DNA of 64,000 nucleotides from an uncultured Candidatus Saccharibacteria bacterium (GCA_964599405.1 CAZRED010000001.1:149942-213941); one strand, 5' to 3'. Positions 18,783 to 55,660 are shown, numbered from the stretch's first letter. Translations and numbers: made by a program. Notes: generated by a model from the sequence alone, not told the origin.

Positions 18783-19342
18783 TAGTCGCGCCGAGCACGG
18801 TCTTTTTTGACTTCTTTGAGTAGTCCGATTACTAATTTTTCCGGGTCGGATTCAAACACAATCCTGGCTCGACCGCGCTTGGCAACAGTTAAGATATGAT
18901 CAATTTCGTCGATCATTCCGCCGGAATCCAGCAAAATGCCGATCGGTTTTTTGTCTTCAAAGGCTACTGTAAACTCGTTCAAAGTCCCAATCCGGCCGCA
19001 GATAAAAATCACCGCGTCGGTCGAGCGAATAAACAGCAAATTGCGCCCGGAGTAGCCAAAGCCGGTGTACATGGTGAAGTCGGTGTACTGGTGGGGGAGC
19101 TTGTACTTGCGGACGTGCTCAAGATAGCTGGAAGCAGGGGAAATCCCCACCGTAAAGCCACCGGCTTTTTTGGCGCCCTTGGCCGCTTCCAGGGGAATAC
19201 CGGTAGTGTCACCGGTAACCACTACGATACCGCGTTTGGCTAGTTCCCGGCCAACTTTTTGGGCATTTTCTATCGCATCCGGTGTGCAGTTAAAAACCGC
19301 CGAACCAGAAACGCCAATCTTAATTGAATCGTTTGACCCCAT
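18782..19342 (-). CDS. TIGR00725/LOG-family Rossmann-fold protein
   Basis: GxSGS...VVTGDTTGIPLEAAKGAKKAGG...GGxGTLNE pattern of the LOG/TIGR00730 superfamily. Confidence 0.65.
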   Translation of the reverse strand: MGSNDSIKIGVSGSAVFNCTPDAIENAQKVGRELAKRGIVVVTGDTTGIPLEAAKGAKKAGGFTVGISPASSYLEHVRKYKLPHQYTDFTMYTGFGYSGRNLLFIRSTDAVIFICGRIGTLNEFTVAFEDKKPIGILLDSGGMIDEIDHILTVAKRGRARIVFESDPEKLVIGLLKEVKKDRARRD

Positions 19343-19437
19343 CCCTTTTAATCATCTTACTGGGAAACTGGCTAAATATCCAAACTACCCCCCACCGTTG
19401 CCCGAAAGGCCCAAAATAAGGTAAAATACACCCGTAT

Positions 19438-19509
19438 TCCGGAGTAGCTCAGCGGTAGAGCGACGCCCTGTTAAGGCGCTGGCCGTCGGTTCGAATCCGA
19501 CCTCCGGAG
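19438..19509 (+). tRNA. tRNA-Asn (GUU)
   Basis: Acceptor TCCGGAG/CTCCGGA, D-arm GCTC-AGCGGT-AGAGC, anticodon loop CTGTTAA, T-arm GTCGG-TTCGAAT-CCGAC. Confidence 0.9.
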
Positions 19510-19514
19510 CAAAA

Positions 19515-19550
19515 ACAAAAAATCCACCCTTGCGGTGGTCTTTTTGTTTT
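19515..19550 (+). terminator. Rho-independent terminator after tRNA-Asn
   Basis: Hairpin CCACC-cttgc-GGTGG followed by a T-rich run. Confidence 0.55.
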
Positions 19551-19687
19551 GTTTGGGAGGAGATTGAACCGACCAGCCGAAGGCTTGTCGGTGCGGTTCC
19601 GAGCGAGTACATTGCGAGCGAGGATCAAGGAGCGAAGCGACGCTTGGTCTCCGACCTCCGGAGCAGCATGGACGACGTTAGAACCTA

Positions 19688-19727
19688 ACTCGACATTTTA
19701 AGGTTGGGGGGTACAATCCTGAATATG
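19688..19727 (+). promoter_or_regulatory. Conserved promoter cassette copy P1 (CTCGACATT...TACAAT)
   Basis: TCGACA 19690-95, 16-nt spacer, TACAAT 19712-17. ATG of a 14-codon mini-ORF lies 7 nt downstream. The DUF305 gene follows, with its own SD. Confidence 0.55.
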
Positions 19728-19850
19728 AACCTTACAACACGCGGAGCGGAGGAAGTAAAAGGAGGTTAACTGTCGGCGAGCAAATGGCGACAAGGGAGAC
19801 CATAAAGAAACGATAAATTTCAGCCGTTTGGCTGATAAATAGGAGGTAAA

Positions 19851-20450
19851 ATGGAAAATAAGAGTAACTTATTCATCGCCGGTGTGTTCTTGGTAGGAAT
19901 AATTGCCGGGGTATTACTTGCTCCAGTCGTAAAAAATACTACGGGAATGATGAGCAGAGATGGTAGCACGCAACAGGAGCGAATGGACAAAATGTTCATT
20001 GAACAGATGGTCCCACATCACGAAGACGCGATTGCAATGGCTAAGATTGCCCAAGAAAAAGCTACACGACCGGAGATTAAACAGTTAGCAGCTGATATTA
20101 TTTCTAGTCAGTCGACGGAAATAGAACAAATGAAGAAGTGGTATAAAGATTGGTTTGGGAGTGATGTATCTAGCGTTGACCATACCGCAATGCATCACGG
20201 CGGTGGAATGATGCCAGGCAGTATGATGTCTGAAACTGATATTACCCGACTCACGACAGCCAATCCATTTGAGAAAGAATTTATTCGGCAGATGATACCC
20301 CATCATCAAATGGCAGTAATGATGGCCGAGATGCTAAAAACTACAACTGACCGAGCCGAAATGAAAAAACTGGCCGAAGATGTTATTACGGCCCAAACCG
20401 CTGAGATTGAAAAAATGAGAGCGTGGGATAAGGCTTGGTATGGGGCCTAA
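19851..20450 (+). CDS. DUF305 family four-helix-bundle metal-binding protein
   Basis: Two repeats of the DUF305 motif (QMVPHHEDAIAMAKIA and QMIPHHQMAVMMAEML). N-terminal TM/signal. Confidence 0.8.
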   Translation: MENKSNLFIAGVFLVGIIAGVLLAPVVKNTTGMMSRDGSTQQERMDKMFIEQMVPHHEDAIAMAKIAQEKATRPEIKQLAADIISSQSTEIEQMKKWYKDWFGSDVSSVDHTAMHHGGGMMPGSMMSETDITRLTTANPFEKEFIRQMIPHHQMAVMMAEMLKTTTDRAEMKKLAEDVITAQTAEIEKMRAWDKAWYGA

Positions 20451-20493
20451 TAACGAAAGGTTCTAGACCGGAGTAGCGAGCGAAATAATACCC

Positions 20494-20862
20494 ATGAAAC
20501 AGGACGATAAGACAAAACAACGGATTCACACAATGAGAGTCGGCGGCGTCTATCCTTTCTATGTTGCTAAAGCACAGAAAAAAGGACGCACAAAAGCAGA
20601 GGTTGATGAAGCCATCTGTTGGCTAACGGGCTATAGCCAGAAAGAGCTGGAAGCCGAGCTGGCCAAAGAAACCAACTTTGAAGCTTTCTTTAAGAAAGCG
20701 CCGAAGCTGAACCCAGCCCGAAAATTAATTACCGGCCTAATCTGCGGTGTGCGGGTGGAAGAGATCGAAGATCCAATAATACGGGCTGTTCGTCAGCTAG
20801 ATAAGCTGATCGACGAGTTAGCCAAAGGCAGAGCGATGGAGAATATTCTGCGTAAACAATAA
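20494..20862 (+). CDS. DUF2200 family protein
   Basis: [40 protein letters not shown] matches the DUF2200 consensus closely. Confidence 0.75.
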
Positions 20863-20875
20863 GCTCTCATCGAAT

Positions 20876-20912
20876 ACTCGACATTTCCAGGTTCGGCGGT
20901 ACAATTCGGATA
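20876..20912 (+). promoter_or_regulatory. Conserved promoter cassette copy P2 (leaderless)
   Basis: TCGACA 20878-83, 16-nt spacer, TACAAT 20900-05, ATG at 20913 (7 nt after the -10). Confidence 0.6.
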
Positions 20913-21470
20913 ATGAATTTAGAAAAAAGCTTTCGTGAGTTCATCGAAAGCGACGCACTTTATCAGGAAGCTTTTAGAATCGTTCAGCACAACTCATCGG
21001 GAAAAATCTGGCTAATTGGCGGGTACCTATCCCGTAACCTGGCAAACATCCTGTATGGCACCGGGGAACCAGACAAGGGCGATATTGATTTTATTGTTGA
21101 AAAGCTCAACCCGTATTTCTTTGCTTCCGACTGGGGGATACGGATAAACAGTTACGGTAATCCCAAGTTAAGAAAAGGTGCGGTGCGAATGGACGTAGTT
21201 CCGCTAGACAATGTCCTTTCCATTCGGCAGCGAAGCCTTGAGCCAACAATCGAAAACTACCTTACAGGCGTTCCCCTCACATTTCAGTCAATCGCTTATG
21301 ACACAACCAGTGGCAAAATAATTGGCGGGATTGGCAAACACTCACTGAAGACTAGAACTATCGGTATTAATAGCCCCGAGTTGATTGCCAGCACAGCCCG
21401 GAAAAAAGGCATGACTATAGACGAGTATGTAGACAAGTACTGTCGCAGCTTCGGTTTCCGAAAAGTTTAG
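20913..21470 (+). CDS. Minimal nucleotidyltransferase-fold protein (putative)
   Basis: IGGYLSRNL...GDIDFIV resembles the GS/GG...D-x-D motif of NTase-fold proteins. Confidence 0.45.
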   Translation: MNLEKSFREFIESDALYQEAFRIVQHNSSGKIWLIGGYLSRNLANILYGTGEPDKGDIDFIVEKLNPYFFASDWGIRINSYGNPKLRKGAVRMDVVPLDNVLSIRQRSLEPTIENYLTGVPLTFQSIAYDTTSGKIIGGIGKHSLKTRTIGINSPELIASTARKKGMTIDEYVDKYCRSFGFRKV

Positions 21471-21506
21471 CTCGACATTCCCAGGTTCGGGAGTAGAATC
21501 TAAGGA
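21471..21506 (+). promoter_or_regulatory. Conserved promoter cassette copy P3 (leaderless)
   Basis: TCGACA 21472-77, 16-nt spacer, TAGAAT 21494-99, ATG at 21507. Confidence 0.6.
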
Positions 21507-22154
21507 ATGAAGCGAAGCGAGCTACTTGTAGATATTGGTCTTGTGGTATTGGCTATAATCTCTACCGGTCTATTAGTCTTCGAGATTACCCACGATGTAA
21601 CCGCTTCAACAAGCACGCTAATAAGCCGGGTGGATATAGTTATTGCACTAATTTTCCTCGCAGATTTCATATACGGTTTCTCGCAAGCAAAGAATAAAAG
21701 TCAGTTTTTTAGTAAGCGTTGGTACGAATTACTTGCTTCTATACCGATTACGTCAACTACAACTCAGATTCTAAGAAGTTTGCGGTTGTTGAGGGTACTC
21801 CGAATCATCCGTTTGATGGCACGAATGAGGCGGGTAGCCGATTTTTACCTCGACGGTCCAAAGTTTCAGATTCTATCAATCGTGCTGACAGTATTTACTC
21901 TTGTATTTATGGGGGCAGTCGCCTTCCACAGTTATGAATTCGGAATAAATCAGAATGTTCACAACCTCTTCGACAGTTTCTGGTGGGCAATGGTTACGGT
22001 TACGACCATTGGTTATGGCGATATTTATCCGGTCACAACTGCGGGAAGGGTTGTTGCAATGATATTAATGGTTATCGGTATAGGAACTCTGGGAACGGTT
22101 ATCGGATCCGTGGCTACCCAATTCCTAAAAGCCGAAGAAGAATTCAAAAGGTAG
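21507..22154 (+). CDS. Voltage-gated potassium channel (Kv-like)
   Basis: Selectivity filter TTIGYGD. S4-type arginine repeat RSLRLLRVLRIIRLMARMRR. Confidence 0.75.
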   Translation: MKRSELLVDIGLVVLAIISTGLLVFEITHDVTASTSTLISRVDIVIALIFLADFIYGFSQAKNKSQFFSKRWYELLASIPITSTTTQILRSLRLLRVLRIIRLMARMRRVADFYLDGPKFQILSIVLTVFTLVFMGAVAFHSYEFGINQNVHNLFDSFWWAMVTVTTIGYGDIYPVTTAGRVVAMILMVIGIGTLGTVIGSVATQFLKAEEEFKR

Positions 22155-22157
22155 CAG

Positions 22158-22190
22158 GCTCGACATTCCCAGGTTCACACACCTGTCAAA
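22158..22190 (+). promoter_or_regulatory. Degenerate copy (P4) of the cassette -35 block, lacking a recognisable -10
   Basis: CTCGACATTCCCAGGTTC is present 5 nt after the K-channel stop codon, but no TAnAAT follows at 16-17 nt. A 10-bp-stem hairpin lies at 22213-22238. Confidence 0.3.
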
Positions 22191-22259
22191 CCTAATGACG
22201 CCTGGGAACAACCCAGCCGGGTGGGTTGTTCGTGATACAGGCGGGAACAGGAGGAACCA

Positions 22260-22586
22260 CTATGTGCGCGTGCTCTTTAAGCGTTTGTCGAGAATCCCCT
22301 GGATTGACGGACTAATCTTTTTGTCCGGGCGGTGGATACAACCTACCCAGCAACAAGGCCGGCGCTTGCCTTCGAGTAGTTCTTCGCCGGTTCTTTTAAT
22401 ACGGCGGCTCCGGGTTTCAATCTGTTTGGCATTCTCCACCCAGCAGATGAACTCGTTGCGAGCGAGCACAGTTATGTCTTCCCATAGCTTAAGAACTTTT
22501 GGGTCCGCAACCAGCGCTTTGCGCAGATCCGCTGGCATTTTATGTACTGTGCCGCCAGAAATTTCTTTTGCAACCATTGGATACAT
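22260..22586 (-). CDS. YdeI/OmpD-associated (DUF1801-related) family protein
   Basis: 108 aa with a coherent sequence (KMPADLRKALVADPKVLKLWEDITVLARNEFICWVENAKQIETRSRRI). The overlapping plus-strand ORF 22195-22596 is low-complexity. Confidence 0.5.
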   Translation of the reverse strand: MYPMVAKEISGGTVHKMPADLRKALVADPKVLKLWEDITVLARNEFICWVENAKQIETRSRRIKRTGEELLEGKRRPCCWVGCIHRPDKKISPSIQGILDKRLKSTRT

Positions 22587-22601
22587 TTTACATTAACATG
22601 C

Positions 22602-22636
22602 CTCGACATTTCTAGGTTCAACGGTAGAATTGAGCA
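22602..22636 (+). promoter_or_regulatory. Conserved promoter cassette copy P5 (leaderless)
   Basis: TCGACA 22603-08, 16-nt spacer, TAGAAT 22625-30, ATG at 22637. Confidence 0.6.
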
Positions 22637-22909
22637 ATGGATCTACAATTGCTGTTCAGTATTTTGGTTACAATCTTCTCGCTGGGCCTAACACTTATCG
22701 GCATCCCAGCACAAATTATGAAAAACTATCGGGAAAAGCGTTCTGGCCAACCATTAATCACTATTGTAATTGCTATGGGATTTTACGCGTCTTCAATCGT
22801 CCTTTTTGCCTTGACCAAAACATACCTCCCACTGGCCGCTTTCTGCATCGGTTTCGTGATGTGGGGGATAACCTTAGGACAGTACTTGACGTATAACCGG
22901 AAACGTTAG
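22637..22909 (+). CDS. 3-TM PQ-loop/SemiSWEET-like small membrane protein
   Basis: 90 aa with three helices. Helix 1 is followed by GIPAQIMKNYREKRSGQ, resembling the PQ-loop motif. Confidence 0.4.
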   Translation: MDLQLLFSILVTIFSLGLTLIGIPAQIMKNYREKRSGQPLITIVIAMGFYASSIVLFALTKTYLPLAAFCIGFVMWGITLGQYLTYNRKR

Positions 22910-22954
22910 CTCGACATTTTCAGATTCAAGATACGAGTTTTGGACTGCTATAAT
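22910..22954 (+). promoter_or_regulatory. Cassette -35 block (P6) followed by an extended -10 (TGcTATAAT)
   Basis: CTCGACATTTTCAGATTC starts 1 nt after the stop codon. TATAAT at 22949-54 is preceded by TGC. Confidence 0.4.
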
Positions 22955-22996
22955 ACGGGCGTTATGAACCTTATTCTTATCGGAGGTGACTAGAGT

Positions 22997-23188
22997 TTGG
23001 ACGAGAGTGATCGTTACTGCGTGAAGTGTGGCCGCCCCATTGAAGAATGCATGGGGTTTGTGAAAGCCGGCGATGTCCTGGAGTTGATTCTGGGGACGGG
23101 CACGAGACTTCGCGAACTTTGCGGAGTTTGCATAATCCTCTGGAGATGGACCAGAAAAGACACCCTCGTCATGCGAAAAGCTGCCTGA
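22997..23188 (+). CDS. Small zinc-ribbon-like protein (TTG start)
   Basis: SD GGAGGTGA lies 6 nt upstream. CVKCGRP...CGVC gives two CxxC pairs. Confidence 0.35.
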   Translation: MDESDRYCVKCGRPIEECMGFVKAGDVLELILGTGTRLRELCGVCIILWRWTRKDTLVMRKAA

Positions 23189-23195
23189 CCAAGCC

Positions 23196-23236
23196 AAAAG
23201 AGACTTACTACCAAAACAGTTGGTCTCTTTTTTTAT
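23196..23236 (+). terminator. Rho-independent terminator
   Basis: AAAGAGAC...GTCTCTTT stem followed by TTTTTTT. Confidence 0.55.
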
Positions 23237-23270
23237 ACTCGACATTATCGGGTTCGGAGGTATGATCAAG
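23237..23270 (+). promoter_or_regulatory. Conserved promoter cassette copy P7
   Basis: TCGACA 23239-44, 16-nt spacer, TATGAT 23261-66, then SD AAGGAG and ATG at 23284. Confidence 0.6.
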
Positions 23271-23283
23271 AAAAGGAGAGAGA

Positions 23284-23412
23284 ATGATGGATTGGACGTG
23301 GGGCCAAGGGATGATGAGTGGAATGGGTTTTTGGGGAGCGATCTTCGGTATTGTTATCCTGATTAACCTAGTTTTTCTCGCTGTCTGGCTCTGGAAACAA
23401 ATTAGTAAGTAG
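23284..23412 (+). CDS. 42-aa Met-rich single-TM micro-protein, co-transcribed with the P1B ATPase
   Basis: MMDWTWGQGMMSGMGFWGAIFGIVILINLVFLAVWLWKQISK. SD AAGGAG lies 6 nt upstream. Stop is 4 nt before the ATPase ATG. Not in the ORF track because it is short. Confidence 0.4.
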   Translation: MMDWTWGQGMMSGMGFWGAIFGIVILINLVFLAVWLWKQISK

Positions 23413-23416
23413 CTCA

Positions 23417-25384
23417 ATGGATCACCACGGTCATACTAGCGGCCATCATTCGATGGGCGCTGATGATGCTCAAATGTTTTTGCGGCGATTTTGGTACACA
23501 ACATTTCTGCTAGTTCCGCTCCTGTTGGTTAGCAACGTCGGGATAAAGTTTTTTGGTGTGCCGGACTTTGGCGGCCGTGAATTTGTTGGCTTTGCCATTT
23601 CCACGGTAATCTTTTACTTTTCTTGGATATTCTTTGAGCACGCTACCCACGAGATAAAGAGCCGAAGTTACGGGATGATGACACTGGTTTCGGTAGCGGT
23701 GGCCAGCGGCTTTTTGTTTTCAGTGGCTTCCACTTTTATTCCGTCGTTTGGCGGGGTGGAATTTTTCCTGGAAATCTCAACCTTAATCTGGGTACTGCTG
23801 TTTGGCCACTATTTGGAGGCGAAATCAACGGCGACCGCCGGTTCGGCCTTGCAAGAAGTGGCCAAATTACTGCCAAAAGTTGTCCACCTGCTCGACGGCG
23901 AGCAAACCACAGACGTGCCGGTGGAGCAGATTAAAGCTGGTGACATGATTGTGGTTAAGCCAGGCGAAAAGTTACCGGCCGACGGCACAATTTTGGAAGG
24001 GGCGGCCAATATGGACGAAGCGCTAGTAACTGGCGAGTCAAAACCAATCAGTAAAAAAACGGGGGACGCGGTGATTGCCGGATCAATTTGTTTGGACGGT
24101 TCGCTCAAAATCAGAATTGAAAAAACTGGCCTGGATTCGACGGTTGGTCATATTCAACAGCTAGTTGAGCAGGCCCAAACAACCAAGCCACAACTGCAAC
24201 ATATCGCCGACCGGGTGGCCTCGTTGTTGACCTTTGTGGCGCTGGGTACGGCAATTTTGACGGTGCTGATTTGGACGTTGGTGAGTGGCCAGACGTTTGC
24301 ATTTGCCCTGACGATGGCCGTGACGGTGCTGGTGATTGCTTGCCCGCACGCCCTGGGATTAGCAATTCCAACCGTTTCTACTACCGCCACTTCCTTGGCA
24401 CTAAAGCACGGCATTTTCTTAAAATCACTTAAAAAATTAGAGGCGGCCCGAAATATCAGCATCGTTGCCTTCGACAAAACCGGGACACTGACCGAAGGCC
24501 ATCCTGGGGTTACTGATGTGGTGGGCGAGAACCGTGAGGAGGCTTTGCGAGTTGCCGCGGCGTTAGAAGCGGGCTCCAGCCACCCGCTCGCCCAGGCAAT
24601 TATTGCCGAGGCTAAGGGAGCTAAGGCGAAAGTAACCGAATTTAAAAACCTGGCCGGGCGGGGCGTTAGCGGCACAGTTGAAGGCAATAAGTATTGGCTG
24701 GGCAACACAGAGATTCTGGAACAAGTTGATTTGAGCGAACAGAAAAATGATTTCGAGCGATTAAGCGCCGAGGGCAAAACAGTGGTGATACTACGCGATA
24801 AAACCCAGGTGCTTGGTCTAATCGCCGTTGCCGACAAAGTTCGTCCGGAGTCCAAAGAGGCGGTCAAACAACTGCACAACATTGGCGTGAAAGTGGCGAT
24901 GATTACCGGCGATAACGAAGGCGTGGCCAAAACCGTCGCCGGAGAATTGGGAATCGATACGTACTTTGCACAGGTTTTGCCAGAGGACAAATACAAAAAA
25001 ATTAAAGAACTTCAGGACAAGGGCGAGCAAGTGATGATGGTCGGGGACGGGGTCAATGATGCCCCGGCCTTGATTCAGGCAAACGTTGGGGTAGCAATCG
25101 GTGCCGGAACGGATGTGACGGTGGAAGCTGGCGATATTATTTTAACCAAGAACAACCCTGCTGATATCCCCAAGCTATTAATATTAAGTAAAAAAGTTTA
25201 CGGCAAAATGATTCAAAACTTGGTCTGGGCCGTTGGCTACAACGTTATAGCGATCCCCGCTGCCGCTGGGGCGTTTGCGAGCTTCGGTTTATTTTTGCGC
25301 CCGGATGTCGGAGCGTTTCTGATGGCGATGTCGTCGGTGGTGGTGGTAATTAACGCCCTGCAATTAAAGAGAGTGAAATTGTAG
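23417..25384 (+). CDS. copB: P1B-type heavy-metal ATPase, CopB-like (CPH motif, His-rich N-terminus, no HMA domain)
   Basis: N-terminal MDHHGHTSGHHSMG. TM6 CPH (IACPHALG). DKTGTLT phosphorylation site, GDGVNDAP, HP motif. Confidence 0.9.
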   Translation: MDHHGHTSGHHSMGADDAQMFLRRFWYTTFLLVPLLLVSNVGIKFFGVPDFGGREFVGFAISTVIFYFSWIFFEHATHEIKSRSYGMMTLVSVAVASGFLFSVASTFIPSFGGVEFFLEISTLIWVLLFGHYLEAKSTATAGSALQEVAKLLPKVVHLLDGEQTTDVPVEQIKAGDMIVVKPGEKLPADGTILEGAANMDEALVTGESKPISKKTGDAVIAGSICLDGSLKIRIEKTGLDSTVGHIQQLVEQAQTTKPQLQHIADRVASLLTFVALGTAILTVLIWTLVSGQTFAFALTMAVTVLVIACPHALGLAIPTVSTTATSLALKHGIFLKSLKKLEAARNISIVAFDKTGTLTEGHPGVTDVVGENREEALRVAAALEAGSSHPLAQAIIAEAKGAKAKVTEFKNLAGRGVSGTVEGNKYWLGNTEILEQVDLSEQKNDFERLSAEGKTVVILRDKTQVLGLIAVADKVRPESKEAVKQLHNIGVKVAMITGDNEGVAKTVAGELGIDTYFAQVLPEDKYKKIKELQDKGEQVMMVGDGVNDAPALIQANVGVAIGAGTDVTVEAGDIILTKNNPADIPKLLILSKKVYGKMIQNLVWAVGYNVIAIPAAAGAFASFGLFLRPDVGAFLMAMSSVVVVINALQLKRVKL

Positions 25385-25506
25385 GGTTGTTACTTCGTAA
25401 TCAACGCCCTGCAGCTACGTCGGGTAAAGTTATAGCTCTCGGCACGTTAACCAGAATTTAACAACTCCGTGCTATCCTTAATATAATTAAGGAGCCGAAG
25501 ATAACT

Positions 25507-26784: not shown

Positions 26785-27516
26785 ATGGTTATGAACCAAC
26801 AAAAAATACTAATGAAAAACATCACATTTGTTGTACTACTCATCGTGACCGTCGTGGCTTTTGTGCTTATTGCGACAGTTAGTAATCTGGTAGCAACCAC
26901 TGTCCCGGGTTTTCCCAACACTAGCTCCACTTCTGATTTTACCCAGACGATTAACCCCGGCACGTTGACAGTGGATATCGTCGACGGCAGTTACGTGGCA
27001 GTTGGTAGCCCGGCCGTAGCGATGAGCGCGGCAACGTTCGGTTTTACCTGTCAGACCACCACTGGCACCTTCGGAACCGGCACCCAGCAAATTTATGTTA
27101 AAAACCCCGACGCTTCCGACACCGGCTGGTCAACTACATTGGCCGCTTCCGCCCCCACCGCTTTTTGGGACAGTGCCGGTACTGATATGGACTTTAACGA
27201 CCCAACAACTGCTGGCTGTACTGATGGTGCCGACGCCGATAGTTTGAAAGGCCAAATGACGGTTGATCCTTCGGTCGGTACATTGGCCGTTGGGCAGTGC
27301 TTAAGCTGTGTGGTCACCAACGTCACCAAAGGATCGCTGGCGGCATTTAACCAAGCCACTCTCGATAGCATCACTATCTTAAGCGGCGCTGCAGGGTCGG
27401 ATGATATCGGCGACTGGAAATTAACCGGTGTATCGATTAGCCAAAAGATCCCGGGCGAACAGCCAGCGGCCAGCGACTACACCATTCCTCTGACACTTTC
27501 GATTGTGGCCATCTAA
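26785..27516 (+). CDS. Small secreted protein with a C-terminal WxL-like module (paralog A)
   Basis: N-terminal TM/signal, then a roughly 170-aa module shared with 27503-28228 and with the C-terminus of the 1914-aa protein. Trp-x-Leu motifs GDWKLTGVS and GWSTTL. Confidence 0.6.
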   Translation: MVMNQQKILMKNITFVVLLIVTVVAFVLIATVSNLVATTVPGFPNTSSTSDFTQTINPGTLTVDIVDGSYVAVGSPAVAMSAATFGFTCQTTTGTFGTGTQQIYVKNPDASDTGWSTTLAASAPTAFWDSAGTDMDFNDPTTAGCTDGADADSLKGQMTVDPSVGTLAVGQCLSCVVTNVTKGSLAAFNQATLDSITILSGAAGSDDIGDWKLTGVSISQKIPGEQPAASDYTIPLTLSIVAI

Positions 27517-28210
27517 AGTTTGGGGGATTATCAAAAACAATACATTCCTCCTCGTCATCATCTCCATTGTCGTGCTGTCGATACCGTTTATTGTTAATGC
27601 CTTAATTACCAACGAAGCCCCACGATTACCAAACACCGCCGACGTTAACTTCACCCATACCATCAACCCCGGCACGTTGACGGTGGATGTTGTGGATGCT
27701 AGTTATGTCGTCGTCGGCAGTCCATCGGTGGCAATAAGCGCCTCAACCTTTGGTTTTACCTGTCAGAGTGCAACTGGGCTTTTTGGTACGGCCACCCAGC
27801 AAATCTACGTCAGAAATCCCGACGCGGCCGATAACGGTTGGGTAACGAGTTTGGCCGCTTCCGTCCCCACCGCTTTTTGGGACAGTGCCGGGACCGATTT
27901 AGACTTCAACGATCCGACGACTGCTGGCTGTACTGACGGCGCTGATACCGATACCTTGAAGGGTCAGATGTCGGTTAACCCAACCGTGGGGACATTGGCC
28001 ATCGGGCAGTGCGCCAGCTGTACTACTACCAACGTCACTAAGGGCTCCTCATCGGCCTACAACGAAGGGACGGTAGACAGCATTACCATTTTGAGCGGCG
28101 CCGCGGGGTCAGATGACATCGGCGACTGGAAATTAACCGGTGTGTCTGTTAGTCAAACTATTCCCGCCGAACAGCCAGCGGCCAGTGATTACAATATCAA
28201 CCTAACTCTT
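26940..28210 (+). repeat. Tandem gene duplication (two roughly 560-bp near-identical coding repeats)
   Basis: 26940-27500 and 27650-28210 encode near-identical modules (TINPGTLTVD...LTLSIVA). Confidence 0.7.
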
Positions 28211-28228
28211 AGTATTGTTGCCAGCTAA
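27503..28228 (+). CDS. Small secreted protein with a C-terminal WxL-like module (paralog B, tandem duplicate)
   Basis: About 80% identical to paralog A over the module. 14-nt overlap with the upstream gene. Confidence 0.6.
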   Translation: MWPSKVWGIIKNNTFLLVIISIVVLSIPFIVNALITNEAPRLPNTADVNFTHTINPGTLTVDVVDASYVVVGSPSVAISASTFGFTCQSATGLFGTATQQIYVRNPDAADNGWVTSLAASVPTAFWDSAGTDLDFNDPTTAGCTDGADTDTLKGQMSVNPTVGTLAIGQCASCTTTNVTKGSSSAYNEGTVDSITILSGAAGSDDIGDWKLTGVSVSQTIPAEQPAASDYNINLTLSIVAS

Positions 28229-28269
28229 CAATAATTAGAGAATAATAATTATATAAAACAGAGGGGATT

Positions 28270-29271
28270 ATGAAAAAACTACATCTAAAAAAACTCTTAT
28301 TGGCAACCAACCTAATGACTGTGCTGTCGTTATTGTCGCCCAACTTTGCCCAGGCAATTGAGTATGGTGGCGTTGGTGGAAAACCGGCCAATCCGATTGC
28401 CGGCAACTCTCGAACCGAGTCAATATTTATCCACACCCTTGAGCCGGGAGCAACCCAAGAAGACGGGGTGCTGGTGGTAAATAATAGCCCCGAGACTAAA
28501 ACCCTGTTGGTCTATGCAGCCGACTCCACTCCTTCCACCGATGGCGCTTTCGCCTGTAAGCAACTAACCGAAGAGAAGACCGACGTCGGTGCTTGGATTA
28601 CCTTAAAAAAGTCAGAGGTAACACTGGAATCCGGTACCAAAGAAACCGTTCCCTTCACCATTCGCACTCCTCTAACCGCCAGCGTTGGCGAACATAACGG
28701 CTGTATCCTGATTCAGGAAAAGAAAGCCGCCGTTGAAGGCCAAACCGGCGCGGCCATATCGATGCGGACCGGTCTGCGCGTCGCTATTACTATTCCTGGA
28801 GATATCCTTAGAAAACTGGAAATTGGCGCCCTGACAGTGGCACCAACAGACGCTGGATTTTCCCTTACCCCCACAGTTAAAAACATTGGTAACGTCTCAA
28901 TTGACGCAAACGTTCGGGTAATAACACGCAATTTCATTGGGATGACGCATTTCACGAACGGCGGAGAGTTTCCGATTCTCCGAGGCGATACCTCACAGTG
29001 GAATTTCGATTTGAAAAGACCGTTTTGGGGCGGTTTTTACCGTTCCACCCCCGGCGTTGAGTACGACGAAAATCCAGAAGCGGGCGTTGGACTAAAAAGC
29101 GGCAAGGCGCTGACTAATTTAACTGGAGCCACCGTTTGGTTCTTTAGTTTCCCAACGCTACCGGCCTTACTAATCGAAATCTTGGTACTACTGTTTATTT
29201 TCCTTGGCTTACCGTTGATCATTCGCCAGATCCGCAAAAATCGCTCAGTGCCTTCAGTGCCGCTAGCTTAG
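28270..29271 (+). CDS. Signal-peptide protein with a C-terminal TM anchor and short basic tail (DUF916/CscA-like architecture)
   Basis: 333 aa. Lipobox-less signal peptide. C-terminal helix FPTLPALLIEILVLLFIFLGLPLII is followed by RQIRKNR. Confidence 0.45.
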   Translation: MKKLHLKKLLLATNLMTVLSLLSPNFAQAIEYGGVGGKPANPIAGNSRTESIFIHTLEPGATQEDGVLVVNNSPETKTLLVYAADSTPSTDGAFACKQLTEEKTDVGAWITLKKSEVTLESGTKETVPFTIRTPLTASVGEHNGCILIQEKKAAVEGQTGAAISMRTGLRVAITIPGDILRKLEIGALTVAPTDAGFSLTPTVKNIGNVSIDANVRVITRNFIGMTHFTNGGEFPILRGDTSQWNFDLKRPFWGGFYRSTPGVEYDENPEAGVGLKSGKALTNLTGATVWFFSFPTLPALLIEILVLLFIFLGLPLIIRQIRKNRSVPSVPLA

Positions 29272-29308
29272 GCCAGCTTGTGCTGGTGGTGGGGCTTTTG
29301 GATAAAGG

Positions 29309-32300
29309 ATGACTAAGCTCCAAATACAACTCCTGCTTGTGATTGGTCTATTGGCGTTGATTGTCAGTGGTTCCTTGGCGTTACGTAAACCGCCCTCAGT
29401 AACTCCGCCCGAAGCTACCTACCGCTACCGCCCACTATCAGAGCTGAAGCTCAATACCACGAATCGGGACAAGTATTTCGTTGGCCAGCACGAAGTGGTT
29501 CCGACGACGGAGCCAATCACGGCGGCTGTGCCACCACTGGCGCACCAAGCTCGGCTCTCTTTGAACAGCGCTCACCCCGGTCTACCAAATACTGGTGCCG
29601 GCGATTTTGATACCTCGATTAAAGCCACTGGCACGGGTTCGATTGCCGAAGCGGTACCGAAAAGCTCCCAGGCCAAAGCGGGTCTGTATCAGCTGAAAGT
29701 AACCGACGGGGTCACTGGGCAGGTAGTTTCTGACCAGACCGTTGCCTGGGGCGTATTAGTTTTTAACTCCGATTACGCCGCCTATCCAATCAACACCAAA
29801 GCCAGACTAGCGATGGCGGTTTTGGACGACCGTGGCAAGATGATCTGTGACGCCGAGCTGACGCTGGCGATCACTGAGCCCAACGGCCGAACTATTACAT
29901 TAAGCACGGCTAATAACCAAATTCTCGTTAATGAGGCCTGTTTTGTCTACGGATTGACCGAAGAGCCAGACTACGTGGCCGAATATTTACCAACCCAAGC
30001 TGGTAACTATCAGGTTGCCTTAACCGCTCGGATCGGTAACGGCGTTAGAGTGCTACACGATCAATTCTCCGTGGTCGAAAACGCCCCGTTCTATCTGCAA
30101 AGGGTTGGTGCTTCCCGAACCTATCCGGCCGCTAGCTATCCCTACACCTTTAACTTTCAACCCACCCAAAGCGGTCGTTACCAATTAACCGAAAACGTGC
30201 CGGGCAGTTTCGAAATACTCGACCTGACGATTGACGGCAACCCCTGCCCGACGGAAAGCTTACTGAACGCCGGAGCTTGCAAGATTGAGGTCTCTGAGGA
30301 CGGCAATGAGAAGCAATTAATCTGGCGGGTCGACGCCCGAGCCAATCGTGATATAAAGATCGCCTATACATTTAAGGGGCCTAGTATTTCGCCGTATTTA
30401 TTCCGGCTTGGACCGGCCGAAATCACCTCACCCGACGACTCAATTTGGACGGAGACACGTTCTTGGCTAATTGCCTCCGATGCCGCTTGCCAATCGAACG
30501 GCACTGGCGGCGGCAACTCCAACGCATCTGGCTCTTGGCAGACCTGCGGTGGGACGACCCCGCAGGCCGCTGACTCAATTACCATTCTGAGCGGCGACAC
30601 CATTACTATGAACGCCGCCTTGAGCGTCACCAGCATTGTTATCAACAACGGCGGCATTTTTACCAACAACGCCAGCCCCTTCACCTTAACGCTCACCGGT
30701 ACCACTGGCACCCTCTTCACCTTGGGCGCAACCGGTACCTTCACGCCCGGCACTTCGATTAGCGTCACGATGAACCCAAATGCTTCAATTACCACTACCT
30801 CCGGTACCATTACTTTTTTTGACTTAAACTTTACGCCGACAATCTCTGCCAGCAACAAAACCTATACGATGGGTTCCGGCGCTCTGACCATTAACGGCAA
30901 CTGGGCTATTACCGGTACGGCCGCGAGTAACGCCTTAACCTTAACGGTTAATATGAGTGCCAACGTGACGGTGGCTTCGACAAAAACCACGACGATTGGC
31001 CCGGCGTCGTTAACTAACAGAGCCACTTTGGACGTACAGCCCTCACTGGCCAGCTACAACCTAACGACCGGTACCCTGGCTATCACCGCCCTAGGTACGC
31101 TAAACGCCGCCAATGCCACCTCGGCGATTACGGTTGCCAACAGCTACAGCAATAGCGGCATTTTCACCGCCGGTTCTAGCACGGTTAGCTTCACCGCTAC
31201 TGCCACTGGTAAAACTTTGAGCGGTACACTATCCGGCGCTAACGGTAAATTCTTCAACGTCATTTTCAACGGCGTCGGCGGTGCCTGGGCATTCGGTGCT
31301 GCCGTCGAAGTAGCTAACGACTTTACCGTTACAAATGGGGCCGTCACTGCTAGTAACAATAATCTCTCCGTCACTCGTGACTTTACACTGGCTTATACCG
31401 CCGGTGTTTCTTACGTGGCTGGATCGTCAACCGTTACCGTCGCCAGACACTTCAATGACCCTGGCGTCAAATACGTTTCTAACACTTCCGAGCTGGCTCT
31501 GGACGGCACGGGCACTTTAACCACCGCTACAACTGCTTCCCTTTACGATGTATCGCTTGGCCAATCCGGCAACACAACAACACTGGCAATGGCCGGAGCG
31601 ATCGACAACTTTAACTACTACGCTAGCGACACAGATCATTTCCGGGTCCTGCTCTTCGACGGGAGTGTTGTCAAATACAAAAGCGCCGAGATAACCCCGC
31701 CCGGCACCGGTGTCAGAAGCTATACTCCGCCATCCCCTGTCCCCTACAAAGCTGGCTGGAGTATCGGTATCTATACCGTCGGTAATGGCGTCATTCCCTA
31801 CACCGGTAGCGGCGGCACACACTACTACCAAGCCAATAACTCTGGCCAACCAAACGAGGAAGCTACGATTTCCTGGCAAGGAACAACAGTCCGAACCTAT
31901 TCGATTAACGGCGAGGTCAACGGCGTCCGGGTAATCGGCAATGACGCTATCAGCCGGCCTTCGCTCGACTCATTCACTAATACCTCCCTGAAAGACACCA
32001 ATAACAACGCTACGGGGGTGGCGGAAGGATTATTAACTGTGACCAACGGCGCTACCTTGAACGGCGGTACGGTTACCGGCACTGATACCGGACTATTTCT
32101 ACCGTGTAGCACAACTTGTTCCGGCCACCTGGTCTTTAACTCACCGACCACCTTGAGCGGCTCCGGCGACAACCGGGTAGTTTACTCAACCGGCAACTCA
32201 ATAACCTATACCGTTACTGGGGGAACCTACGGCAGTTGGAATATTGCAATGGAGACAACCACCCTGTCCGATACGCCGATAACGTTCGAGCTTGGGGGAA

Positions 32301-35053: not shown

Positions 35054-35081
35054 CAGACTTTCCTCTCCATTAATTTACGTA

Positions 35082-36089
35082 GTGAGTTTGTTTCGTTATC
35101 CTAATATTGGTAGGGGTGTAATCGATTCCATGAGAACTGGCCGTTTTAAACTGTTTGCTTTGATACTAGGTCTGACCATAGTAGCGTTTGGGAGTGGCAT
35201 AAAAACCGTCGCCGCCCAAGACAGTCCCAGCGTCTTATATGTCCCCTTAATCGGCCTAACATCGGTACCAGATCCGTTGGCACTACCGGATGGGGCGGGT
35301 GATGTAACGTATCATTACGCAGTTAAAAACTTTCTTAGCGAGGCGGCTTTAACTAACGTCCAAGTCGTCGACGACAACTGTGCCTCCGTTAAATTTATCG
35401 AAGGCGACGATAATAACGACTCCGAGCTTGATTACGACGAAACCTGGCGCTACACCTGTACCACTAAAGTTTCCGTCACCACTCAAAGTACGGCCACGGC
35501 CACCGGTACTGCCAATAATTTAACCGCGACTCACAAAGCCTACGTTACCGTTATTGTTGGTCTAAGTGACCCAGCCCCACTTGTTAGTATTGTTAACATC
35601 ACCAAAGTTGCCTATCCATTGTCCCTACCGGCCGAAGGAGGCGACATTACCTTTATCTATAAGGTTAACAATCCAGGCGTCGTGTCATTAAGTGATGTCA
35701 CTGTCGTTGATGATAGGTGTGGGGCGATGTCCGGCAAACTCGGGGACAGGAACGGCAACGGCCTGCTGGATACCAATGAGGTTTGGATTTACACCTGTAC
35801 AATGACTCTGAGAGAGACTACTACCAATACCGCCACCGTTACCGCTTTTGCTAATGGATTAATGGCCACGAATAACTTTTCCCTGACCGTCAAGGTTGAC
35901 ACCCTAGTCGATCAGGCGCTCATCAAACTTCCCGATACCGGCAAAGATGCGCTATTAAAAATTATGGTTTGGGAAATCTTATTAGGTATATTGGTAACTC
36001 TACTCACCATATCTATTGTTTTAAACCGAAAGAATCGACTGCGAAGCGTTGAAATTACACAAAATATCTTAGACGGGGGAAGAAAGTAA
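35082..36089 (+). CDS. LPXTG-anchored surface protein with two tandem roughly 110-aa repeats
   Basis: C-terminal LPDTG, hydrophobic helix, then NRKNRLRS. Repeats contain VVDDNC...WRYTCT and VVDDRC...WIYTCT. The likely start is the internal Met at 35130. Confidence 0.65.
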   Translation: MSLFRYPNIGRGVIDSMRTGRFKLFALILGLTIVAFGSGIKTVAAQDSPSVLYVPLIGLTSVPDPLALPDGAGDVTYHYAVKNFLSEAALTNVQVVDDNCASVKFIEGDDNNDSELDYDETWRYTCTTKVSVTTQSTATATGTANNLTATHKAYVTVIVGLSDPAPLVSIVNITKVAYPLSLPAEGGDITFIYKVNNPGVVSLSDVTVVDDRCGAMSGKLGDRNGNGLLDTNEVWIYTCTMTLRETTTNTATVTAFANGLMATNNFSLTVKVDTLVDQALIKLPDTGKDALLKIMVWEILLGILVTLLTISIVLNRKNRLRSVEITQNILDGGRK

Positions 36090-36132
36090 CCATGAATTGT
36101 TTAGAGGACTAAATGAATAGTTTGTTACACAA

Positions 36133-37060: not shown

Positions 37061-38032
37061 CTATTTAGTTGTTAAATTCCACAGAAACTCAATTGCTCGA
37101 TTCTCTGCCCAGTGATGGTCGGGGTCGCCGTTTTTGGACTGACTAATAAATCCACCGTGGCCACCGCCATTGGTGATGATTAACTGGACGTTCGGGTTGT
37201 TGTCTACCCCATCAAACGAGCGGGCGGGGATTACCACATCGTCAGCGCTCTGAATAATCAGGGTGGGAACGGCAATGTTTGGCAAAAACGGCCGGGCGCT
37301 GGCCTTGGCGTGATAGTCGCCGGCATCAATAAAACCGTTATGGGGAGCACAGAACCGATCGTAATCCCCCAGTGTTTTAATGTGCTTAATGGCCTGGATA
37401 TCGTACCTTCCCGGAAAAAGACGGCTCCGAGTGCGCAGCGACGACATCTGCCAATACAACATCAGCCAACGATAGATGGCCGGGGCCTTGTTATCGACAG
37501 AATCAACAGCGGCGGCTAGGTCAATTAGCGGTGAAATTCCGACTGCTCCAATTAGTTGCTTCGGAGCGTCCTGGCCCCATTCGCCAACCGCTTTTAGGCA
37601 GGCGTTGCCGCCGTAGGAAAAACCCATCAGCCCAATTTTCGGCAGTGAATCTTCCCTAATTAACTCTTCAATCACTATGCGCAGATCGGCACTCTGGCCG
37701 GCGTGAGAGAGGGTTTTACTGTATTTCTCACTGCCGCCGCCGTTGCGTAAATTAACCCTGACCACGTTGAAACCGCGGGTGTAGGCTTTGGCGGTGGTGC
37801 CTCGAACGTATGGGCTGATAGTCGAACCATTGAGCCCGGCAATGATAACTAAAGTGGGGGAGGTAGTTTTATCAGCCTGCCAAGAGCATTCCCCAACTAG
37901 TTGAGAGCCATCGGGCAGTTGAAAACGGCGATCTTTCGACGGAAAAAACCTAATTGGCCTGGGCATCAGCACGCTGCCGATTGTTTGGAGATGCGGGCTT
38001 TTTAACCATTTGGCTACGACAAAATTATTCAT
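37061..38032 (-). CDS. Alpha/beta-hydrolase (YheT/ABHD-type)
   Basis: Nucleophile elbow GFSYGGN. Asp and His positions are consistent with the fold. Confidence 0.65.
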   Translation of the reverse strand: MNNFVVAKWLKSPHLQTIGSVLMPRPIRFFPSKDRRFQLPDGSQLVGECSWQADKTTSPTLVIIAGLNGSTISPYVRGTTAKAYTRGFNVVRVNLRNGGGSEKYSKTLSHAGQSADLRIVIEELIREDSLPKIGLMGFSYGGNACLKAVGEWGQDAPKQLIGAVGISPLIDLAAAVDSVDNKAPAIYRWLMLYWQMSSLRTRSRLFPGRYDIQAIKHIKTLGDYDRFCAPHNGFIDAGDYHAKASARPFLPNIAVPTLIIQSADDVVIPARSFDGVDNNPNVQLIITNGGGHGGFISQSKNGDPDHHWAENRAIEFLWNLTTK

Positions 38033-38117
38033 TTAGTCCTCTAAACAGTTCATTTAGTCCCCTAAACAGTTCATTTAGTCCTCTAAACAATTCATTTAGT
38101 CCTCTAAACAATTCATT
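38029..38117. repeat. 21-bp tandem repeat, 4.2 copies (TCATTTAGTCCTCTAAACAGT)
   Basis: Copies at 38029, 38050, 38071 and 38092. The first copy contains the hydrolase start codon and SD on the minus strand. Confidence 0.85.
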
Positions 38118-41925: not shown

Positions 41926-41964
41926 GCTCGACATTTGCGTGTCTGTAGGTAACATCTAGACAAT
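41926..41964 (+). promoter_or_regulatory. Conserved promoter cassette copy P8
   Basis: TCGACA 41928-33, 16-nt spacer, TAACAT 41950-55, ATG at 41965. The cassette starts 3 nt after the sortase stop codon. Confidence 0.5.
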
Positions 41965-53590: not shown

Positions 53591-54475
53591 TTAAGAAACT
53601 AGGTGCTTAAAGTGGTCTTTCTGCAAGCGCAGCTTTCGAATTGCAGATGTCTCTGCATCAATGACCGTGTGACGACAGATGCTAAGTATCTCTCCAACTT
53701 CATCAAGTGTTCTAACAACGCCATCTTCTATGCCGAAGCGCAATACGATGACGTCTCTCTGTCGAGCTGTGAGTTCCCCCAGTACTGCTTTGAACAGTTC
53801 TTCTCGCACTAACTTATCTTCAACTTCGGACATTTGATTACTAGCTAGTAGTTCAACGATCGTATCATCGCCACTTTCTCCAACAGGTGTGTCAAGAGAA
53901 ATAATAGACTGCCCAGAAGACAACATATTGGCTACTTTTTCCGAACTGTAGCCTAGGTAGTTGGAGATATCGGCTTGCGTCACGGAATGCCGAAGTTTTT
54001 TCTCGAGTGCTTCCACCTCCTTTCGAAAACCGCTCAATGCGGTGGTAACGTGGATTGGAAGACGGATAGTTCTACCTTCATTGAGTAAACCGCGATTTAT
54101 CTTCTGGCGAATCCATAGAGTCGCGTAAGTAGAAAATCGACAGCCTCTGCTATAGTCGTAGCGCTTCGCCGCTTCCATCAGACCTATAAACCCCATCATG
54201 AAAAGGTCGTCCATATCCTGGGAGTAGGCTTTTCTTTCGGCGGCCTTTTTGGCGATCGACAAGACCAGACGAAGGTTGGCCTTGACCAGGTGTCTGTGCG
54301 CTTCAATACTTCCTTCTTCTTTAACCTTTCGGCCAAGATCTAACTCCTGTTCTTTGTTCAGAAGGTGATCTTGCGAAGTTACCCGGACAAGTGCCGAAAT
54401 TGATGACGAGCTTTCCAGCTCGCTCTCTTGTGTTAGTAACGAGTTGGTCGGCTTTTTTCTCATATCAAGTCTCAT
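53591..54475 (-). CDS. Sigma-70 family sigma factor (group 2/3-like, regions 2-4)
   Basis: Region 2 (YSQDMDDLFMMGFIGLMEAAKRYDYSRGCRFSTYATLWIRQ) and region 4 HTH (TLDEVGEILSICRHTV). Confidence 0.75.
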   Translation of the reverse strand: MRLDMRKKPTNSLLTQESELESSSSISALVRVTSQDHLLNKEQELDLGRKVKEEGSIEAHRHLVKANLRLVLSIAKKAAERKAYSQDMDDLFMMGFIGLMEAAKRYDYSRGCRFSTYATLWIRQKINRGLLNEGRTIRLPIHVTTALSGFRKEVEALEKKLRHSVTQADISNYLGYSSEKVANMLSSGQSIISLDTPVGESGDDTIVELLASNQMSEVEDKLVREELFKAVLGELTARQRDVIVLRFGIEDGVVRTLDEVGEILSICRHTVIDAETSAIRKLRLQKDHFKHLVS

Positions 54476-55659: not shown

Positions 55660-55660
55660 C

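Follow-up and report, generated by a model that had tools for sequence, protein, structure and literature searches.

A probable lineage-wide promoter module of leaderless accessory genes at a variable locus of Candidatus Berkelbacteria-type genomes

What keeps a short stretch of DNA nearly the same in front of a string of unrelated small genes? This question is raised by 64,000 nucleotides (nt) from an uncultured bacterium deposited as Candidatus Saccharibacteria (GCA_964599405.1, CAZRED010000001.1:149942-213941), which were analysed at full length and are called the window here. A first-pass annotation of the window had described a family of promoter cassettes in front of small stress or metal genes, and had left two options for their likeness, a dedicated sigma factor or regulator site on the one hand and a recent spread of the cassette on the other. 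We consider it likely that the repeated element, called the module in the following, is a sigma-70-family promoter of leaderless accessory genes which is common to a whole lineage, is recognised by a shared reader and bounds exchangeable gene units.

In the window, CTCGACATTYCCAGGTTC is matched seven times with at most three mismatches, always on the plus strand (19689, 20877, 21471, 22159, 22602, 22910 and 23238). By chance, 0.08 copies are expected, and none of 100 shuffles reaches seven. The cluster of seven copies within 3.6 kb is thereby confirmed, its earlier coordinates being right to within 1 nt. Five copies extend to the full 29-nt unit CTCGACATTnnnnGGTTnnnnnGTAnnAT. A promoter scan reads each of these five as TCGACA-16 nt-TA(C/G/T)(A/G)AT, with 10 out of 12 matches to the consensus, and the pattern is counted seven times in the window versus 1.23 expected. 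A profile was built from 30 canonical copies and run with nhmmer on the window and on 28 Berkelbacteria-type loci; L-numbers denote these loci of the relatives.

The full copies, all on the plus strand, are P1 (CTCGACATTTTAAGGTTGGGGGGTACAAT, 19689..19717, profile E=1.6e-10), P2 (20877..20905, E=9.9e-13), P3 (21471..21499, E=5.5e-14), P5 (22602..22630, E=5.2e-10) and P7 (23238..23266, E=1.3e-8, with the -10 element TATGAT). The -10 element of P2, TACAAT, lies 7 nt before the ATG of a gene for a protein of 185 amino acids (aa) at 20913-21470. That of P3, TAGAAT, lies 7 nt before the ATG of a Kv-like channel gene (21507-22154), and the same hexamer in P5 lies 6 nt before the ATG of a gene for a 90-aa membrane protein (22637-22909). 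Two plus-strand copies of the cluster are incomplete. The copy at 22159..22176 consists of the left half plus CCAGGTTC, matches profile positions 6-24 and, as annotated before (at 22158), has no -10 element; only its positions 1-18 are retained. It lacks the -10 element because the gene behind it runs the opposite way and no plus-strand gene follows. The degenerate copy P6 (22910..22955, E=8.1e-5) keeps a left half of ~18 nt and has lost its right half, with a substitute TATAAT 40 nt further on, at 22950-22955.

An eighth, near-identical copy had been placed at 41926. What we find at 41927..41955 on the plus strand (P8) is limited to CTCGACATTT ... G-TAACAT at the right spacing (E=0.47); it is probably a diverged member of the family and not a near-identical copy. 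It stands 9 nt ahead of the ATG of a DUF1801 gene (41965-42324). A further variant, P9, was found on the minus strand (61999-61970) by a position-weight scan and the nhmmer profile (E=1.4e-6). It reads CTCGAC TGACCCC AGGTTCAGGAGTACAAT, followed by 7 nt and an ATG, has one extra nucleotide in the left half, a canonical right half and the -10 element TACAAT, and is set off by 4 nt from the stop codon of the preceding gene, which encodes a large serine recombinase.

Each copy had been said to begin 1-15 nt after the upstream stop codon. This holds for 20877 (14 nt), for 22159 (4 nt past the stop of the channel gene) and for 41927 (4 nt past that of a sortase gene), and for 21471 and 22910 the gap is 0 nt, as both directly abut the TAG stop of the preceding gene. 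It does not hold for 22602, which follows the start of a minus-strand gene, nor for 23238, which lies 49 nt past a stop and behind a terminator-like hairpin. The leaderless geometry reported for P2, P3, P5 and P8 is correct, with 7, 7, 6 and 9 nt, respectively, between the -10 element and the ATG. To call the genes mostly leaderless was overstated: by geometry, this applies to four of the eight copies listed at that time (five of nine counting P9), and the copies at 19689 and 23238 precede leadered genes with a Shine-Dalgarno (SD) sequence.

Taking window and relatives together, the full layout is tAG-CTCGAC-ATTYCC-aGGTTC-gggaG-TAnAAT, then 6-7 nt and an ATG. Among 57 distinct copies having the right half, 48 are followed exactly 6-7 nt past the -10 element by an ATG open reading frame (ORF) of at least 30 codons, and four more have the ATG at 8-10 nt, three of them at 8-9 nt. 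The per-position conservation of 45 distinct full copies shows CTCGAC, preceded by tAG, and the G directly before the -10 element as invariant; between them stand ATTtcca, GGTTC and ggga. In the -10 element TAnAAT itself (T 1.0, A 1.0, n 0.42, A 0.82, A 0.98, T 1.0), the third position is essentially free and T, A and the final T are strongest, and this is thus the profile of a sigma-70 -10 hexamer. Where an upstream co-oriented ORF exists, its stop, mostly TAG, abuts the motif without a gap in 24 of 50 copies, and in the gapless copies the distance from stop to start is exactly 35-36 nt.

Some copies are split. Their left half, CTCGACATTYCC(AG), remains next to the upstream stop and their right half, (CC)AGGTTCGGGRGTAnnAT, keeps its distance of 6-7 nt to the downstream ATG, with an insert of 17 to ~55 nt in between (L001:775-840, L001:1083-1130, L005:4202-4272 and L047:277-374). 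The inserts of the two neighbouring split copies in L001 share CTTTGCTCnGA and their flanks repeat CC(AG); such inserts may be what is left of deleted units, or else a small repeat that was inserted. Furthermore, orthologues carry the full module in one genome and the right half alone in another (the channel gene in L001, the HIT gene in L047). The gene-proximal core is therefore GGTTCGGGAG-TAnAAT, which is like an extended -10 element.

How old the likeness of the copies is can be judged from the genes beside the array. Crude gene maps and protein clustering identify a conserved backbone of an ABC transporter, Ddl, YkuD, a beta-CASP nuclease and a SLOG protein. Backbone proteins are 42-77% identical between the window and the Hainich genome and 42-81% identical over all genomes compared. 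At 4-fold degenerate sites, the pooled identity of four backbone genes between the window and the Hainich genome is 149/459 = 0.32, near saturation, and other pairs are similar; the module stays near its consensus. Orthologous cassette pairs have a 4-fold identity of 0.37-0.83 (0.37-0.56 in all but one pair), and the 36 nt before the ATG agree at 27-33 positions where both partners hold the full module. Copies of one genome are about as similar (24.5 of 29 nt) as copies of different genomes (24.2 of 29 nt; permutation p=0.12). The window's own copies rank among the more diverged ones, its five full-length copies being 62-81% identical to the reference copy over 42 nt. A consensus that is kept across diverged genomes, with equal similarity within and between them, points to purifying selection and not to recent copy-and-paste or gene conversion, and purifying selection on one lineage-wide consensus implies a conserved trans-acting reader.

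Between the two options left before, a dedicated sigma factor or regulator is thus favoured, since one consensus persists across genomes with backbone proteins as far apart as these. A recent copy-and-paste of a mobile promoter or miniature repeat in this genome, where likeness would mean youth and not function, would suit the clustering within 3.6 kb, and such reuse of promoters within a genome is documented under the name of putative mobile promoters (PMC3488235). The near-saturated synonymous sites beside an unchanged consensus speak against it, as do the within-genome copies, which are no more alike than others and, in the window, are among the more diverged ones, and the lack of terminal inverted repeats or target-site duplications around the copies. 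We hold this explanation to be very improbable, and concerted evolution is likewise unsupported by the comparison of copy identity within and between genomes.

The distribution of the module was followed by an exact scan of species-representative genomes, in which the 18-mer occurs in 28 places. Eight of these lie in four metagenome-assembled genomes (MAGs); two of the MAGs carry the label Candidatus Berkelbacteria, and the other two, under the label Saccharibacteria, have gene order in common with the window. Seven of the eight Berkelbacteria-type matches run on as GGGAGTACAAT, 7 nt and an ATG. A -10 element follows in none of the 20 matches from unrelated phyla, and their number fits a rough estimate of ~35 by chance (18-mer with one two-fold ambiguous position, 596 Gb, both strands). 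A stricter pattern including the -10 element yielded 20 further metagenome loci. Two scans of viral contigs gave zero matches; therefore, the module is not phage-borne. Judged by these matches, it is lineage-specific to Candidatus Berkelbacteria, uncultured bacteria within the candidate phyla radiation (CPR). The relatives with the same motif and synteny suggest that the window belongs to this lineage, too. The channel gene of the window is 83-85% identical at nucleotide level to those of L001 and L008. Four loci labelled uncultured Candidatus Saccharibacteria (L008, L016, L021 and L026; CAYHNZ01, CAYGDK01) have the backbone order, the motif and an 83% identical channel gene, and share these features with the window and the Berkelbacteria MAGs. 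The Saccharibacteria label of the CAYHNZ01 and CAYGDK01 MAGs is probably wrong. The searchable literature holds no description of the motif or of Berkelbacteria promoter structure, and nothing relevant on CPR promoters or leaderless genes.

The arrays vary in content next to a conserved flank. The backbone is complete in the window and in L041 and partial in L008/L047, L021 and L038, and tRNA-Asn adjoins it in three of five genomes. Behind it, each of the five genomes has a different module-linked gene set, and in all five we observe co-oriented, unrelated single-gene units of varying content. The gene next to the channel is OmdA in the window, Ham1 in L047 and a small protein in L001; the Kv channel, Ham1, the M15 peptidase and the hydrolase recur with differing neighbours, and Ham1 and the hydrolase, which stand behind the channel in L047, lie 38 kb off in the window behind the serine recombinase. 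Divergence also changes from unit to unit. Between L002 and L044, a methyltransferase unit is 94% nucleotide-identical (4-fold sites 0.83), the gene upstream is unrelated and the HAD unit downstream is 70% identical (4-fold sites 0.48), and these steps coincide with the modules on either side of the methyltransferase unit. For the channel unit, the 4-fold identity of the window to the Hainich genome is 0.56, versus 0.32 for the backbone. Since adjacent units have diverged unequally, they have different histories, and single units have moved between lineages.

Unit breakpoints at or beside the module would imply cassette-wise exchange, in which the module could provide short homology or a site for a recombinase, or could simply be the only non-coding DNA present. 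That most arrays have no recombinase near them and that the motif lacks symmetry speaks against a classical site-specific system. With due reserve, one may speculate that the promoter module has a second role as portable junction in a cassette system that needs no integrase, with the same 30-40 bp at both ends of a unit; we regard this as rather doubtful. If it were true, recombination at the module would cut out, re-insert and swap between Berkelbacteria genomes single-gene units with their own leaderless promoter, an integron-like outcome reached by another mechanism, in a phylum whose mobile-element biology is almost unknown. Beyond the first-pass annotation, the module appears to be lineage-wide, to abut the upstream stop, and to mark a variable hotspot with breakpoints at its edges.

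The promoter and leaderless readings proposed earlier are in good agreement with the architecture in the window and in the relatives, that is, with the hexamers, their spacing, the -10 profile and the 6-7 nt to the ATG, and from it we infer promoter activity and start position. The -35 element would be TCGACA, within the invariant CTCGAC and usually after tAG; with the conserved 16-nt spacer and the -10 element TAnAAT it would form a complete promoter, fitted in between the stop codon of a gene and the start codon of its successor. RNA polymerase would start on the A of the ATG or 1 nt before it and produce a leaderless mRNA, and with a start on the ATG each small gene would be its own transcription unit. 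The conservation beyond the hexamers would be held by a shared reader, be it a sigma factor that makes extended contacts or a spacer-bound regulator. In this way, the module would define a regulon of accessory housecleaning, detoxification and transport genes, and the units by tRNA-Asn, every one bounded by the same ~30-40 bp, would undergo gain, loss, relocation and exchange among genomes, their breakpoints lying at the module.

The module is absent upstream of MurJ, FtsH, Ddl, the class II aminoacyl-tRNA synthetase, DnaG, RpoD and other ordinary genes of the window, which have plain TAnnnT boxes, often 5-9 nt from the start, or SD sites. Therefore, it is not the general promoter of the organism, and a general housekeeping promoter was ruled out. 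As for the reader, the window encodes a second sigma-70-family protein of 294 aa (53591..54475, minus strand; identified with Pfam and NCBIfam) directly downstream of dnaG-rpoD, the three genes together spanning 53591-57433. It has regions 2, 3 and 4, lacks region 1 and is closest to group-2/RpoS-like models, below all curated cut-offs, which suggests that sigma factors are few, one of them being divergent and group-2-like. This sigma factor is a candidate for the module's reader; a spacer-binding regulator is equally possible.

Several points weigh against the promoter reading or limit it. The loci of the relatives were fetched with patterns that fix many positions, so that the conservation figures are inflated by ascertainment; the 64-kb window is the sole stretch that was not picked for containing the module. 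The 17 copies that match neither search pattern keep CTCGAC (16-17 of 17), T9 (17/17), GGTT (15-17 of 17), the G before the -10 element (17/17), TA (17/17) and the final AT (17/17), and this check lifts the ascertainment only partly, as detection by profile also favours the consensus. There is no dyad or direct-repeat symmetry to mark a classical dimeric regulator site. Split and right-half-only copies suggest that CTCGAC is separable and may have a role apart from that of a -35 element. The promoters that group-2 sigma factors read normally differ little from those of RpoD, and the tie between the 294-aa sigma factor and the module is putative, drawn by inference. The mosaic divergence could come from recombination anywhere in very short intergenic DNA, with no need for the motif to take part. 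Promoter function itself is argued from sequence logic.

Which other explanations fit the same observations? An ordinary RpoD promoter (TCGACA/TAnAAT) may be overlapped by the operator of a global repressor or activator, made up of CTCGAC, GGTTC and GGGAG. The genes would then form a transcription-factor regulon rather than a sigma regulon, which is a variant of the favoured promoter reading and compatible with it. An operator is supported by the conservation throughout the spacer, a region in which base-specific contacts of sigma-70 are normally few, by genes with plain promoters in the same genome and by a cargo coherent enough for a stress or housecleaning regulon. It would, however, lack the palindrome or tandem half-site that dimeric regulators use, no regulator gene is consistently linked to the arrays, and the right-half-only copies keep GGTTCGGGAG-TAnAAT at a set distance to the ATG, where an extended -10 element fits at least as well; we consider an operator possible, though on the unlikely side. 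Far less credible, in our view close to negligible, is an element that acts at the RNA level on read-through transcripts, such as a terminator, a processing site or an internal ribosome binding site with GGGAG as SD. Read-through is likely, since most array genes have no terminators between them, and GGGAG is conserved in the spacer; CTCGAC and the TAnAAT profile would be left unexplained. No secondary structure beyond that of shuffled sequence was found for the module on either DNA strand (z=+1.28) or as RNA (z=+0.43), two split copies folded as DNA and one as RNA do no better, and the sole Rfam match over 19000-24000 is tRNA-Asn, with none to the module. Having neither a fold nor an Rfam match, the module therefore acts as duplex DNA. 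Terminator, attC-like and processing-site readings were dropped, folding being no better than shuffled, and GGGAG is unlikely to be an SD, because it ends 12-13 nt before the ATG versus 2-6 nt for the clear SD sites of the window.

The module might also be primarily the recombination site of an integron-like platform, its likeness to a promoter being secondary and the large serine recombinase (62004-63359) a candidate for the enzyme. Co-oriented unrelated small genes with a conserved repeat, a conserved flank with a tRNA and a content that differs per genome are what such a platform would show; half and split copies break within or beside the central CCAGG(TTC), the divergence steps fall at modules, the CcrB-like recombinase gene ends 4 nt before P9, and the 3' end of tRNA-Asn is duplicated at the edge of the array. 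Yet a recombination site has no need for a TAnAAT box with a -10 profile, which in 48 of 57 copies stands at 6-7 nt from the ATG, and the motif has neither a hairpin nor dyad symmetry. The main array has no recombinase within 38 kb and the other arrays examined have none save one fragment in L030, and no tyrosine recombinase domain of the IntI type was found in the scanned window ORFs (all but 4 of the ORFs called at >=70 aa, plus four shorter array ORFs). Overall, we judge a primary recombination site to be unlikely. Further candidates were set aside. A Dcm-type CCWGG methylation site is unlikely, as the position varies (CCAGG, CTAGG, CCGGG, CCTGG). Promoters for sigma-54 (GG-N10-GC) and for extracytoplasmic function (ECF) sigma factors (GGAAC...CGTC) do not fit by inspection. 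The likeness of GGTTCG to the tRNA T-arm (GGTTCGAATCC) extends over 6 nt only, without a complementary stem, and is taken to be a coincidence.

The genes of the array are as follows. Its left edge is tRNA-Asn(GTT) (19438..19510, plus strand; ARAGORN, Rfam tRNA with 69 bits), after which stands a bidirectional terminator-like hairpin (19512-19550). A decayed second copy of the 3' half of the tRNA (cf. 19473-19511) is found at 19627..19665 on the plus strand (2 matches versus 0.04 expected), and the final 16 nt of the tRNA are repeated exactly at 19650-19665, 154 nt downstream of the original. This looks like an att-like scar of an earlier integration at the array edge. Behind P1, a leaderless mini-ORF of 14 codons (19725-19769) begins 7 nt past the -10 element, and is followed by a leader of ~130 nt with an SD and by the genes of DUF305 (19851-20450) and DUF2200 (20494-20862), both assigned with Pfam. 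Behind the TATAAT of P6 come a mini-ORF of 9 codons, an SD and a gene that starts with TTG and encodes a 63-aa Cys-rich protein (22997-23188); the homologue of this protein in L032 has a canonical leaderless module. Both mini-ORFs (19725-19769 and 22965-22994) open with ATGAACCTTA, 7-9 nt past a -10 box and ahead of an SD-led gene, DUF305 and the Cys-rich protein, respectively. They could be leader peptides or the leftover 5' end of a displaced gene.

Between the channel gene and P5 lies, on the minus strand, a gene of the OmdA/YdeI family (22260..22586; Pfam OmdA, 8.6e-17), whose likely start is the second ATG at 22577. It has a leaderless promoter of its own outside the module family, TAAAAT, 7 nt and ATG (minus-strand scan, 22614..22585), and its homologue in L021 stands behind a canonical module. 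The unit of the 63-aa gene ends with a terminator-like hairpin (AAAGAGAC...GTCTCTTT) and a T run at 23197..23234 on the plus strand, which was read by eye, since its loop exceeds the limit of the terminator scanner. P7 precedes a short leader with an AAGGAG SD, behind which a 42-aa Met-rich peptide (23284-23412) is encoded, followed by a P-type ATPase (23417-25384). Of this ATPase gene, the final 39 nt including the stop (25346-25384) are repeated 12 nt further on, at 25397-25435, with 72% identity; it looks as if the end had been replaced by recombination and a remnant of the old end left behind.

Pfam supports the earlier gene labels DUF305, Kv-like channel (Ion_trans/Ion_trans_2 at 21507-22154), CopB as a P-type ATPase, and DUF1801. 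Two labels found no support: neither the 185-aa protein, called nucleotidyltransferase-like, nor the 90-aa protein, called SemiSWEET-like, has a match in Pfam, NCBIfam or PDB, and in the latter a PQ-type motif, GIPAQIMKNYREKRSG, is seen by eye. The genes for DUF2200, the OmdA/YdeI protein (minus strand) and the 63-aa Cys-rich ORF had been missed. In the relatives and the window, 30 of 43 downstream protein families were annotated with Pfam, in addition to the window annotations. They comprise nucleotide-related proteins (Ham1, MazG, NUDIX, HD/YfbR-like, HIT, CYTH), three SAM (S-adenosylmethionine) methyltransferases and a SET domain protein, hydrolases and peptidases (HAD, isochorismatase-like, serine and alpha/beta hydrolases, S51, M15, peptide deformylase), proteins of a detoxification or resistance type (glyoxalase, beta-lactamase-fold, APH-like kinase), a Vut_1 transporter and the channel, as well as DUF402, DUF5680 and several proteins matching no family. 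The earlier description as stress or metal genes was too narrow for the wide range of small stand-alone enzymes seen across the relatives; they are better described as accessory genes for housecleaning, detoxification and transport.

P9 heads an operon on the minus strand (61962-58188) with Ham1, a dCMP deaminase-like protein, an S51 peptidase, an alpha/beta hydrolase, a NUDIX protein, an M15 dipeptidase and a 126-aa protein. The region 57922-63359 thus unites tRNA-Ser, this seven-gene operon of small hydrolases and the CcrB-like large serine recombinase (62004-63359), and no repeat of the tRNA-Ser end was found in it. In a related genome, Ham1 and the alpha/beta hydrolase of the operon adjoin the channel gene. 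The rest of the window encodes MurJ, FtsH, DivIC, the ABC transporter, Ddl, YkuD, the beta-CASP nuclease, a class II aminoacyl-tRNA synthetase, RmuC, DnaG, RpoD, sortases and surface proteins. Paralogous surface proteins form a cluster at 26785-36089, including a 1914-aa giant (29309-35053), with two sortases and proteins with PKD, WxL-interacting and DUF7507 domains nearby; cell-surface machinery of this kind is typical for an episymbiotic CPR bacterium. A 21-nt unit, ATTCATTTAGTCCTCTAAACA, stands in 4.3 tandem repeats at 38027-38117, with a 32-nt inverted copy 1.9 kb off at 36092-36123. The repeats lie directly upstream of the starts of a convergent pair of a sortase and an alpha/beta hydrolase gene, and may either act as a shared operator or form the ends of a segment that is invertible or mobile.

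To our knowledge, almost nothing is known about transcription start and regulation in CPR/Patescibacteria, and no member of the Berkelbacteria has been cultured. If the promoter reading is true, a promoter class used throughout the lineage would provide a testable regulon, a strong promoter for genetics and a rule for finding leaderless starts. The conservation of the whole spacer would point to an unusually extensive recognition of the promoter by sigma factor, polymerase or regulator. Arrays of the order stop, promoter, start would mark the flexible part of very small genomes, with functions in nucleotide-pool sanitising, detoxification, channels and transporters, and the divergence steps at modules would suggest a simple route by which self-expressing single genes are traded between lineages.

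How does the module compare with known systems? The regulons of RpoS, of actinobacterial SigB and of Bacillus SigB also have a distinct promoter class before small stress and housecleaning genes, and the second sigma-70-family gene is in line with them. The module is not known to match the published consensus of any of these regulons, and no sigma regulon is known to have so uniform a spacer. Leaderless promoters of the sigma-70 type occur in Actinobacteria, in Deinococcus and in the group C genomes of GeneMarkS-2 (PMC6028130). As there, a TAnnnT -10 element lies 6-7 nt before the ATG with no room for an SD, and many other genes of the window are alike. In contrast, lineages with leaderless genes conserve the -10 element only, while the module holds ~32 nt including CTCGAC, the spacer and 2-3 nt of what is usually the upstream stop, and this conservation is confined to a subset of genes.

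The putative mobile promoters of Matus-Garcia et al. 2012 (PMC3488235) are regions of 50-100 nt with at least 80% identity upstream of non-homologous genes in one genome, which were read as signs of recent or conserved mobilisation, some families being shared between taxa. They have in common with the module that similar upstream sequence precedes non-homologous genes; the module differs in being ~32-40 nt long, old, lineage-wide and placed in stop-to-start arrays. Correia/NEMIS elements of Neisseria and other miniature inverted-repeat transposable elements (MITEs) are short intergenic repeats, too, and are able to supply promoter elements. They have terminal inverted repeats, target duplications and a varied distance to the gene, whereas the module is locked to the start codon, and neither inverted-repeat arms nor duplications were found around its copies. 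Chromosomal integrons resemble the arrays in their small co-oriented unrelated units, a conserved repeat and variation beside a conserved flank, and the cargo of glyoxalase, NUDIX, methyltransferases, isochorismatase and hydrolases is integron-like. Unlike integrons, the arrays have no IntI, no attC hairpin (~55-140 nt for attC, ~30-40 nt for the module) and no GTTRRRY core. Finally, integron cassettes are mostly promoterless, whereas the module is a 5' repeat that resembles the promoter of the gene itself.

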